A stretch of 64,000 nt of DNA from Octopus vulgaris (Eukaryota): contig OX597814.1 in assembly GCA_951406725.2 (NCBI GenBank), positions 113,460,001 to 113,524,000 of the forward strand. Reading direction: 5' to 3'. Shown piece by piece: positions 53,704 to 55,920 of this stretch (its first letter is position 1; each line of letters opens with the position of its first letter). A program made the translations under genes and the position numbers. The notes under the pieces are model-generated. The model worked only from the letters and a program-made list of their open reading frames with translations. It was not told the origin of the DNA and searched no databases.

Positions 53704-53912
53704 TCAACAATTGAGGGTAAGGTTAATTAGTTATTAATCAATTTCACCAAGTATTCAGTTGTAAAAGGACCATTATTTTTATGAGTAAACAATGTCTGAG
53801 GGAAAATATTCTCTAAGTAGTGGAAGAGGCTAAAAAACTTTATTGGCTGCTATTTCTAGAAAGTTCAGTATGCGGCAGAGTAATTTATTTTACTAAGCCC
53901 TAATTATATAAT
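53704..53912. mobile_element. Short diverged relative of the 560-bp family: two 3' termini in inverted orientation
   Basis: TCAACAATTGAGGGTAA..TTCACCAAGT..GGACCATT at left and GCTGCTATTTCTA..AGTTCAGTATGCGGCA..TACTAAGCCC..TATATAAT at right match the two outer ends of 4756-8717. Confidence 0.8.
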
Positions 53913-54283
53913 ATTTTATACATACATACACATACATACACACATACATATACACATACATATGCATACACACATATATACATATATACATACATACATC
54001 TATACATATATACACACACACACACACACGCACATACATATATATATATATATATATATATATATATACACATATATATATATTTGTTTACATACATACA
54101 CGCACACACACACATAATATATAATACATGCGTATAATCCTACTATACCCATACATTTCTATACATATATACGATACACATATACAAGCGTGCACATACA
54201 ATATGTGAAAGGTCTTAGGAGAAAAGGTAATCGGGGGTGCTAGGGGAACGGTGGGGTTGGGGGGTTTTGTGGGTGGGGTGTCA

Positions 54284-54370
54284 TCAATCTGGTTGCCGGG
54301 TAGGTCTATAGTTCTTGTAGTTCGCATACTTTTTATGCATACAATTTGGGGAGTGTTCTGAGATTTTGTT
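54284..54370 (-). pseudogene. Last 28 codons of a putative PLE ORF (NKISEHSPNCMHKKYANYKNYRPTRQPD*)
   Basis: Resembles the (L)NKxSE..C.HK C-terminal motif of some PLE GIY-YIG endonucleases; starts exactly at the inversion junction. Confidence 0.5.
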
Positions 54371-54444
54371 CCCCAAAAAGTCCCCCACCAACACCCCTTT
54401 AAACCTGCCTAAATGTATAAATGCCAATACAATTCTTGTTAACT

Positions 54445-54495
54445 AGCTTCCTGAAGATTTCTCTTGAATGAAACAGTTCTAGTCCTGTAGAAGCT
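54445..54495 (+). ncRNA. Type I hammerhead ribozyme
   Basis: AGCTTC-CTGAAGA-TTTC tctt GAAT-GAAA-CAG ttctagtc CTG-TA|GAAGCT: 6-bp stem I, intact core, stem III, GUA cleavage after 54489. Confidence 0.85.
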
Positions 54496-54560
54496 CCTTC
54501 TATATAATAAATATATATATATATATATATATATATATATATATATATATATATATATAT

Positions 54561-54720
54561 CCTTTTTTTTCTCTCCTTGTTTTTTCTGTGTCCCTTTCTG
54601 TAGAAGAGCATAGGCTCGAAACGTAAAGGACTTTTTCTATTCCTGAGCGTTATACTAATACATTTGTTTGTTTTATACATCACCTGTCTTCGTCTTTTGT
54701 TTTTTTCGTAAACTCTCCCT
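54561..54720 (+). mobile_element. Family H1 pLTR-like repeat with minimal hammerhead-like motif at 54590-54631
   Basis: GTCCCTTT-CTGTAGA-A-GAGC-atag-GCTC-GAAA-CG-TA-AAGGAC. Confidence 0.6.
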
Positions 54721-55750
54721 ATATATATATAAATATATATATATATATATATATATATATATATATATGTGTGTGTGTGTATATAAAGATATCTACGTTA
54801 ATAACCATTACATACATAATATAAATATATATACATATGCACACACACATACACACGCACACATCAGATGATGTATCACTGTAGCCTACCCAACCATGGT
54901 TAAATTTATACTCGTGTTGTGTATGATATAACTGCATAATATCATTTACATGAAATCTGGAACCAAAAGGAATGGTGCTGAAACAATTGTAACCAATATC
55001 AAACTTGTAACATACTTTCTTATATTTAAACTGTGTGCACCATGGTCATCTCTCCATTAATTGTAACGTACATACATATGTATATATCCATATGAGAGTA
55101 ATTTACATCAGAAACAGTATACATGCACGCATACATCTATATACATATATACGTACGTACGTACATACATACATACATACACATACACACACATATACAT
55201 ACATAGATACATACATACATAGATACATACATACATACGGATTATGTATGACTTTATATACATGTGTGTGCGGAAATACATTCATATTAGACATATATAT
55301 TTGCCAATACACATTTGCATAAATATACATACAGTCTCGTACATATATATATATGCATACACATATACGTAATCTTTTGTATATATATATATATATATAT
55401 ATACATGTATATAAAGATACACACATACACGCACTCGTATATATATATGCACATATATACATATACATGTATGTGTGTGTGTGTGTATATATATATATAT
55501 ATATATGTGTATATATATATATATATATGTGTGTATGTATATATATATATATATTATATATATATATATATGTGTATGTTATATATATATATATATATAT
55601 ATATATATATATATGTGTGTGTGTGTGTGTGTGTGTGTGTGTGTGTGTGTGTGTGTGTGTGTGTGTGTGTGTGTGTGTGTGTGTGTGTGTGTGTGTGTGT
55701 GTGTGTGTGTGTGTGTGTGTGTGTGTATATATATATATATATGTATGTAT

Positions 55751-55920
55751 ATTTATTTTATAGAAGGAGCTTCTACAGGACTAGAACTGTTTCATTCAAA
55801 AGAAATCATCAGGAAACAGTTCTAGTCCTGTAGAAGCTCCTTCTATAAAATAAATTAATTTACTCTGCTATGTATTGAGTACCTTATTTACTGTGGTTAA
55901 CCCCGACAAAACCCGGGACC
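55751..55920 (+). mobile_element. Minimal H3 insertion: 43-bp perfect inverted repeat (55751-55793/55813-55855) plus 65-nt tail
   Basis: Same termini as 50517-54512; the left part is an antisense HHR with the CTGATGA variant. Confidence 0.85.

Follow-up and report, generated by a model that had tools for sequence, protein, structure and literature searches.

One long and one short end in the inverted insertions of a Penelope-like element and a hammerhead retrozyme of Octopus vulgaris

Results

Hammerhead-bearing insertions in the window

The window analysed here is a stretch of 64,000 nt of Octopus vulgaris DNA (contig OX597814.1, positions 113,460,001 to 113,524,000). Four two-armed structures described in an initial annotation, two of a family termed H3 and two of a 560-bp family, were all found in place. 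H3 coordinates are counted from the last C of CCCGGGACC (position 0) and those of the 560-bp family from the last A of CAATTGTTGA. The small H3 insertion (55751-55920) consists of a short-ended arm on the minus strand (55751..55815, positions -130 to -66) and a long-ended arm on the plus strand (55813..55927, -108 to +7), the final 4 nt of which are common to the (AT)n target. The 4-kb H3 insertion has a long-ended arm on the minus strand (50517..54370), holding about 3.5 kb of microsatellite-rich cargo together with the pLTR and tail and corresponding to the 5'-truncated 3' region of a Hydra-clade Penelope-like element (PLE), and an inverted short-ended arm on the plus strand (54371..54512, -207 to -66; 100% identity over 142 nt). 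The pLTR contains a type I hammerhead (50592..50650, minus strand), recognized by its core motifs and by the three-stem fold of an identical stretch at locus L161. Its first base, 50650, is position -133, the probable transcription start (see below), and a TATAAAT box (50673..50679, minus strand) has its first base 29 nt upstream of that position.

We ruled out that 50517 and 54512 belong to two separate insertions, as the microsatellite-rich middle is common to many genomic copies; in 30 other H3 copies the pLTR is followed by this microsatellite-rich sequence or by an inverted arm. The stretch from 50517 to 54512 is one H3 insertion. About 3.5 kb at 50790-54200, which resembles ordinary microsatellite DNA, is mobile cargo of the PLE 3' region at many loci, and H3 cargo is a route for the spread of microsatellite-rich DNA. 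Other H3 subfamilies (L037, L057) seem to carry different cargo.

The 560-bp family is represented by an array at 4756-8717, with a short-ended arm of about 6.1 near-identical monomers, one hammerhead motif in each (4756..8165, minus strand), and a long-ended arm (8169..8714, plus strand, -541 to about +3). Its second two-armed insertion (53704..53912, no strand assigned to the whole) has a tail-only long arm at 53704-53774 (minus) and a short-ended arm at 53782-53912 (plus), and lies as cargo inside H3. This piece was present in 9/10 hand-picked H3 loci compared; it is therefore an older insertion into a master copy and was not made at the window locus. The pairing of a long with a short end that had been claimed for both members of this family stands, with the reservation that the second is H3 cargo.

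Only one of the four inversion joints in the window carries assigned microhomology: the arms of the small H3 insertion share GAA at 55813-55815, in agreement with the microhomology (here 3 nt) first noticed at 55811-55816. The joint of the 4-kb insertion is blunt at 54370/54371, the array has three inserted bases at 8166-8168, and at the fourth joint (53775-53781, between the arms of the 53704-53912 piece) microhomology was left unassigned.

A third hammerhead-like family has (TA)n on its flanks, and its copies in the window have one arm only (1132-1380, 10331-10524, 54562-54729 and 44828-45004). It has 9600 exact 27-mer matches, the first 100 of which included no divergent pairs within 500 bp, compared with 20 for H3. 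The initial annotation had extended its insertion rule across hammerhead families; the extension holds for H3 and the 560-bp family and finds no support among these 100 matches of the third. Two elements that we take to be Helitron-like are inserted precisely where other insertions meet (TA)n: one, unrelated to the array (4373..4754, plus strand, TC...CTAG ends), separates the array's short end from the left (TA)n, and the other starts at about 10523. Elsewhere in the window, inverted repeats at 62115-62445 and 62857-63187 (331 bp, 98.8% identity) are accompanied by a short extra copy at 63185-63237, and hammerhead-core motifs outside the studied families occur at 56233-56247 and 58717-58741. 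A frame at 2537-3043 with CxxC and YCISC...YIGQT motifs is a likely remnant of another PLE endonuclease, and a 333-aa low-complexity frame at 31389-32390, starting MDVHSPLSAKANAFSIAALM, may be the opening exon of a host transcription-factor gene.

Identity of H3 and of the 560-bp family

Long H3 copies were found by motif to contain RT and GIY-YIG coding sequence. At L161 the pLTR leads, 49 nt past position 0, into an ORF of 713 codons (counted from the ATG) with the motifs GANDS, YRDD and YTCE...YIG. Continuity from pLTR to ORF was seen in L015/L161, L156 and L157 and the order ORF-cargo-pLTR in L143-L145; the pLTR lies both before and after the ORF, with partial tandems, as expected of an EN+ PLE. 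A Pfam search of the H3 ORF returned no RT and no GIY-YIG match, the assignment of both being motif-based, and an Rfam search at the gathering cut-off returned no hammerhead, which in H3 rests on the core motifs and the fold of the first 59 nt. Candidates for an RT piece numbered 14342, and the best 150 were 87-100% identical to that piece, which indicates a young family. Features of the Hydra clade are RIRWR at 36 (with R in place of K), DKT at 116, the CxCx5C linker (CNCPDKTTC at 567) and, at the C-terminus, CDLC (CxxC) at 667 and CMH (CxH) at 695. The CCHH cysteine pair is absent, with a single Cys between YTCE and YIG. Membership of the Neptune clade was rejected, as H3 has neither the CX2-5CxxC linker nor the CCHH motif. 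These motifs, from which the clade is assigned, make H3 the pLTR of a young Hydra-clade PLE, one whose 713-codon ORF is open.

The 560-bp family is a non-LTR retrozyme, being made of non-coding monomers in tandem that each contain a type I hammerhead motif. Monomers differ at 0-6 of 560 positions within an array, compared with 5-65 between loci of one subfamily, and this low divergence fits a circular RNA or a homogeneous tandem source. The inverted monomer of L142 is 3 bases off the forward monomers, matching the spread among the forward monomers themselves.

One long and one short end per insertion

Loci were sampled in genome order, both samples being the first 60 (H3) and 52 (retrozyme) loci of one chromosome. 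For H3, a 21-mer had 8498 genome matches, the first 100 of which gave 71 regions, and the first 60 were analysed; for the retrozyme, a 27-mer had 4799 matches, the first 100 of which gave 56 clusters, and 52 were analysed, leaving out 4 clusters in or near long H3 copies. Two arms were the majority state (48/60 H3 and 35/52 retrozyme loci; 76/95 two-armed or scored loci aside). Every two-armed locus with both ends scorable had one long and one short end (46/46 for H3 and 32/32 for the retrozyme, one of the latter being the cargo piece again), and neither long+long nor short+short combinations occurred among these 46 and 32 loci. Two further H3 loci (one duplicated locus) had a short end and an arm broken at -29, and 12/60 were single-armed or extended past the analysed DNA; the remaining two-armed retrozyme loci comprised 2 with one end outside the analysed DNA and 1 with a disrupted short end. 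Single-armed retrozymes (17/52) ended 11 times at the long and 6 times at the short site, one pair being duplicated.

Long ends were sharp, with identical strings in 42/48 H3 loci, and short ends were scattered over about 10 nt; each kind can face either way. As the element runs on past GGACC with TACATAT, the H3 long end falls 3-7 nt further out. The tail, that is the difference between the ends, is about 70 nt in H3, slightly more than the 65-66 nt first given, and about 95 nt in the 560-bp family. Second ends, whose random placement would have told against the rule of the initial annotation, were fixed and not random across the 60 and 52 sampled loci, and its central suggestion of two priming events at two fixed points finds support in the 46/46 and 32/32 counts. 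Contigs from four public runs had loose ends at the long site, at the short site and at -133, although contigs cannot show an RNA start. The two arms of a locus also agreed at four subfamily sites in 35/36, 35/36, 32/33 and 24/24 loci (22, 19, 12.6 and 14 expected), and such matched variants likely reflect one RNA per insertion. Short ends abut (GATA)n in place of (TA)n in L061 and L119, and two pairs of loci are duplicated (L080/L081, L125/L126).

Inversion joints and target pairing

Joints without inserted bases made up 26/36 in H3, with a mean microhomology of 2.3 nt compared with 0.8 expected; with five AGCT joints removed the mean was 1.9 nt and at least 3 nt were shared in 6/21 (p 0.012), a modest excess. 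The corresponding retrozyme joints (21/32) averaged 2.4 nt compared with 0.75 expected, with at least 3 nt in 10/21 (p 3e-7). Joining by microhomology, as first proposed, is therefore enriched in both families but does not describe every joint, since 10/36 H3 and 11/32 retrozyme joints carry inserted bases and 4 per set are blunt. The inserts in L034, L056 and L087 are copies of nearby element sequence, and some seeming retrozyme inserts stem from divergent references. Most H3 joints are unique. AGCT recurs in 5/36, in different subfamilies (L033, L040, L048, L050), and two other joints were each seen twice; genome-wide, the exact AGCT-centred joint was found at 737 loci. At three loci, 60-180 bp of unrelated sequence is captured at the joint (L075:359-525, L134:1657-1718, L140:722-901), and in L099, L102 and L103 the retrozyme arms have internal jumps or repeated tail segments suggestive of template switching.

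At the H3 long site the RNA would read TACATAT, of which ATAT is common to the target, and at the remaining three sites the overlap is about AT. Pairing with (TA)n, which the initial annotation had invoked for both ends, could thus extend over 2-4 nt at most (AT or ATAT), and the modal H3 short end bypasses a better TATATA match 4-5 nt upstream. This argues that position, not pairing, sets the initiation sites. Limited target pairing is possible, and a fixed position combined with a fixed cut phase would leave the same sequence pattern. Folding of whole regions gave no initiation structure common to H3 and the retrozyme. A 21-nt likeness between the two (1/500 shuffles) was set aside, as it falls at a different site in each family.

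A start-site wall in H3

The 5' ends of the 72 arms of 36 short H3 copies (four corrected by eye for indels) are confined by what we term a wall. Ends fell at -134..-132 in 26 arms, at -131..-125 in 23 and further in for 17; only 6/72 began upstream of -134, 2 of them at -144..-135. The AGCT palindrome was unused in 14/19 short copies having an arm at the wall. Hammerhead stem I opens with position -133, and TATAAA or CATAAA lies 29 nt upstream of that base in 6/6 loci examined. In single-armed loci where (AT)n joins directly, the base before -133 was G in 45/77, T in 13, C in 12 and A in 7 (hand tally). The template base at this place is T or C, and G is absent from the target. Control starts at -127..-131 were preceded by G in 1/65 (hand tally among the first 100 of 168 matches; Fisher p 6e-15 against the wall). 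An extra G is described as a mark of capping at full-length L1 insertions (PMC11702581). The wall, the TATA box at -29 and the extra G together suggest that -133 is likely the capped start of the H3 RNA and the extra G its cap signature. A splice acceptor at -133 was rejected on the lack of recurring bases before the G and on the TATA box at -29, and hammerhead cleavage was rejected as the 5' boundary because H3 arms span the cleavage site.

Read-through past -133 was also seen (2158 matches in main subfamilies). The arms of a locus behaved alike towards the wall: both passed it in 10 loci, neither did in 35, and a single locus was mixed (p 3e-9), to which L032 can be added. Mixed loci would be common if the arms were primed in different pLTRs, one 5' and one 3', or on separate RNAs. 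Their rarity indicates that the two arms likely start from the two sites of a single pLTR copy, with the upstream stretch copied twice.

The 64 retrozyme 5' ends formed no wall and were spread across the monomer, with 3/64 within 6 nt of the hammerhead cleavage site. A circular or tandem template would account for this. A cluster at -214..-210 (5/64) was dismissed as a boundary, being accounted for by TATA microhomology.

Discussion

A two-ended priming model and its rivals

The finished genomic copies, which are the whole of the evidence on mechanism, probably record insertions in which two outward arms grew from both cut ends, each priming on the same sense RNA at one of two fixed sites. After double-strand cutting of a (TA)n tract by an element protein, the two cut ends would each prime reverse transcription of that RNA at a fixed site of their own; the one-of-each pattern would follow if the protein were a dimer whose two active sites each served one RNA site. 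Where the sites of the start-proximal pLTR were used, both cDNAs would run off the RNA 5' end and give palindromes of 170-270 bp; where those of the downstream pLTR of a read-through RNA were used, both arms might reach kilobases, with cargo and ORF. The stretch upstream of the short site would be copied twice, by displacement or in turn. The cDNA 3' ends would then be joined head to head through 1-4 nt of microhomology, bluntly or with small inserts, and an arm that failed would leave the other to join (TA)n directly. For the retrozyme, the template would be circular or homogeneous tandem RNA, copied in like manner by a PLE protein. The initial annotation is borne out in part by this model; it had missed the autonomous PLE, the wall at the start site and the untemplated G. 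Some observations sit less easily with the proposal: symmetric joints (6/36 short H3 copies; L101, L109, L118) fit a fold-back equally well, one arm only is present in 17/52 retrozyme loci and several H3 loci, and inserts stand in place of microhomology at 10/36 and 11/32 joints.

The strongest rival is a single priming event after which the cDNA folds back and copies itself, the second end coming from an endonuclease cut or from annealing at a fixed AT-rich site, an idea close to the "EN-mediated resolution" wording of PMC8557442. It accounts for variants common to both arms, for both arms respecting the wall, for symmetric palindromic joints and for the 737 exact AGCT-centred joints. We nevertheless consider it improbable as the general route. 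Among 36 short H3 copies the short arm reached further 5' in 14, the long arm in 16 and neither in 6; the short arm is longer by kilobases in L073 and L143-L145, and the long arm measures merely 25-68 nt in L056, L083 and L086. Fold-back from the long site cannot yield a further-reaching short arm, fold-back from the short site cannot supply the tail if the cDNA lacks it (L056, L083, L086, L144), and single arms end at either site. A further-reaching short arm or a tiny long arm therefore points to two primings and not to fold-back alone, although some symmetric H3 copies may have arisen by fold-back. Much less probable is that the short palindromes are a self-propagating miniature element derived from a few palindromic masters, with ends and wall inherited. 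The exact recurrence of some joints (AGCT in 5/36 and two others twice each) would follow from it, yet most joints are unique, the AGCT joint cuts across subfamilies (L033, L040, L048, L050), single-armed copies have the same wall with the extra G, and either end type faces either way.

Self-priming on an antisense transcript, proposed for rotifer PLEs (PMC3846280), would produce a head-to-head repeat with palindromes at the joints. We rate it slightly lower again, as the wall sits at a sense, TATA-defined start with an extra G and the outer ends match two sense-RNA sites like those reported in PMC11167929. Twin priming of the L1 type, in which the second end anneals to any complementary RNA upstream of the first cDNA, is supported by the position of both ends on AT dinucleotides in register with the target and by the non-overlapping arms of a few copies (L056, L083, L086). 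It seems less credible still: the second site is fixed to about 10 nt, few H3 short ends lie at the neighbouring, better TATATA match, and the arms mostly overlap by 40 nt to kilobases, whereas L1 inner breakpoints are given as lying within 1-10 bp (PMC11702581). Inverted repeats in microsatellites are hard to assemble, and the duplicated loci L080/L081 and L125/L126 could raise suspicion of assembly chimeras or later recombination between copies; this we regard as scarcely believable, given the strict end asymmetry in 78 loci and the recurrence of the three end points in contigs from four other runs.

Returning to two-ended priming, a broader reading, on which our own judgement is evenly balanced, would make it the normal PLE route. 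A dimer would place each (TA)n end on its own site of one capped, uncleaved RNA, and the inverted pLTR and the one-sided tail would be one product. The thousands of 200-bp palindromes would be run-off copies of the first 140 nt of the mRNA, and retrozymes would use the same reaction on circles. With its thousands of copies and open ORFs, the young H3 family offers base-exact predictions of an RNA start and two initiation sites, and further predicts one initiation site per DNA end and one RNA per insertion. PLE start sites may thus be readable from DNA alone, and the mobilization of retrozymes by PLEs gains structural support.

Comparison with known systems

The architecture outlined in the initial annotation, an inverted 5' pLTR and a 3' tail, is that published for PLEs. 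EN+ PLEs are described with an inverted 5'-truncated copy beside the pLTR and a tail at one end (PMC8557442, Fig. 2 legend; PMC3846280), and with AT-rich targets and host DNA captured before the 3' pLTR (PMC8557442; PMC3846280). Tails there are 30-40 nt, compared with about 70 and 95 nt here, and the explanations put forward in the sections consulted are EN resolution or antisense self-priming (PMC8557442; PMC3846280). The Hydra-clade PLEs of PMC8557442 share with H3 a C-terminal GIY-YIG, RW(K/R), DKT, CxCx5C, CxxC and CxH without CCHH, as well as the hammerhead and the (TA)n target; H3 differs in its long cargo-laden 3' region, with a unit of about 5-6 kb as against under 3 kb (PMC8557442).

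Metazoan non-LTR retrozymes are likewise non-coding tandem monomers with one type I hammerhead each, for which a PLE link has been proposed (PMC7229834; bioRxiv 10.64898/2026.07.22.740005). The monomer here is 560 nt, compared with 170-400 nt in those texts, and it occurs in two inverted arrays with PLE-type ends, unlike the metazoan non-LTR retrozymes described in them. In the available text of these sources the word "inverted" does not occur in PMC7229834 and occurs once, in a reference title, in bioRxiv 10.64898/2026.07.22.740005; "tail" does not occur in that of the latter. In Schistosoma, minimal hammerheads also lie in pairs 100-700 bp apart on opposite strands, reported in the parts of PMC4209133 considered here without end mapping or mechanism.

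L1 twin priming resembles the present case in that both break ends prime one RNA, the inversion joint has microhomology and full-length 5' ends carry an extra G (PMC11702581). The L1-type traits of a poly(A) first primer, an opportunistic second site and non-overlapping arms are not those of H3 and the retrozyme, which have no poly(A), two fixed internal sites, overlapping arms and two arms in the majority of loci. The likeness is confined to the use of both ends. A literature search that covered main texts, with supplements, Arkhipova 2006 and Evgen'ev and Arkhipova 2005 (which may bear on novelty) beyond its scope, found neither the one-of-each rule, start-site run-off or cap G for PLEs nor, within the same scope, a paper joining PLEs with twin priming or cap G.

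The closest system is the Poseidon PLE of Anolis (PAc), which in vitro cuts both target strands and extends them, starting at two internal RNA sites that bound the tail, and is predicted to be a dimer (PMC11167929). As proposed for H3, its template is uncleaved RNA and its sites lie near the ORF start (PMC11167929). PAc belongs to another clade, and its sites are inside the ORF, whereas those of H3 are upstream of the ATG, which follows GGACC by 49 nt; PAc initiation is reported not to be homologous to the cut DNA (PMC11167929). In its main text the two sites are not connected with inverted copies, nor is each end shown to use its own site. An inverted copy whose tail is on one side only (PMC8557442, PMC3846280) and the two internal starts with both-strand extension in vitro (PMC11167929) are therefore already known. 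According to PMC8557442 the way in which PLEs form their tail and inverted repeats is undefined, and as far as the main text of PMC11167929 goes, the tail is explained there and the inversion is not; the two-armed octopus insertions record the probable mechanism more clearly than the texts consulted do.
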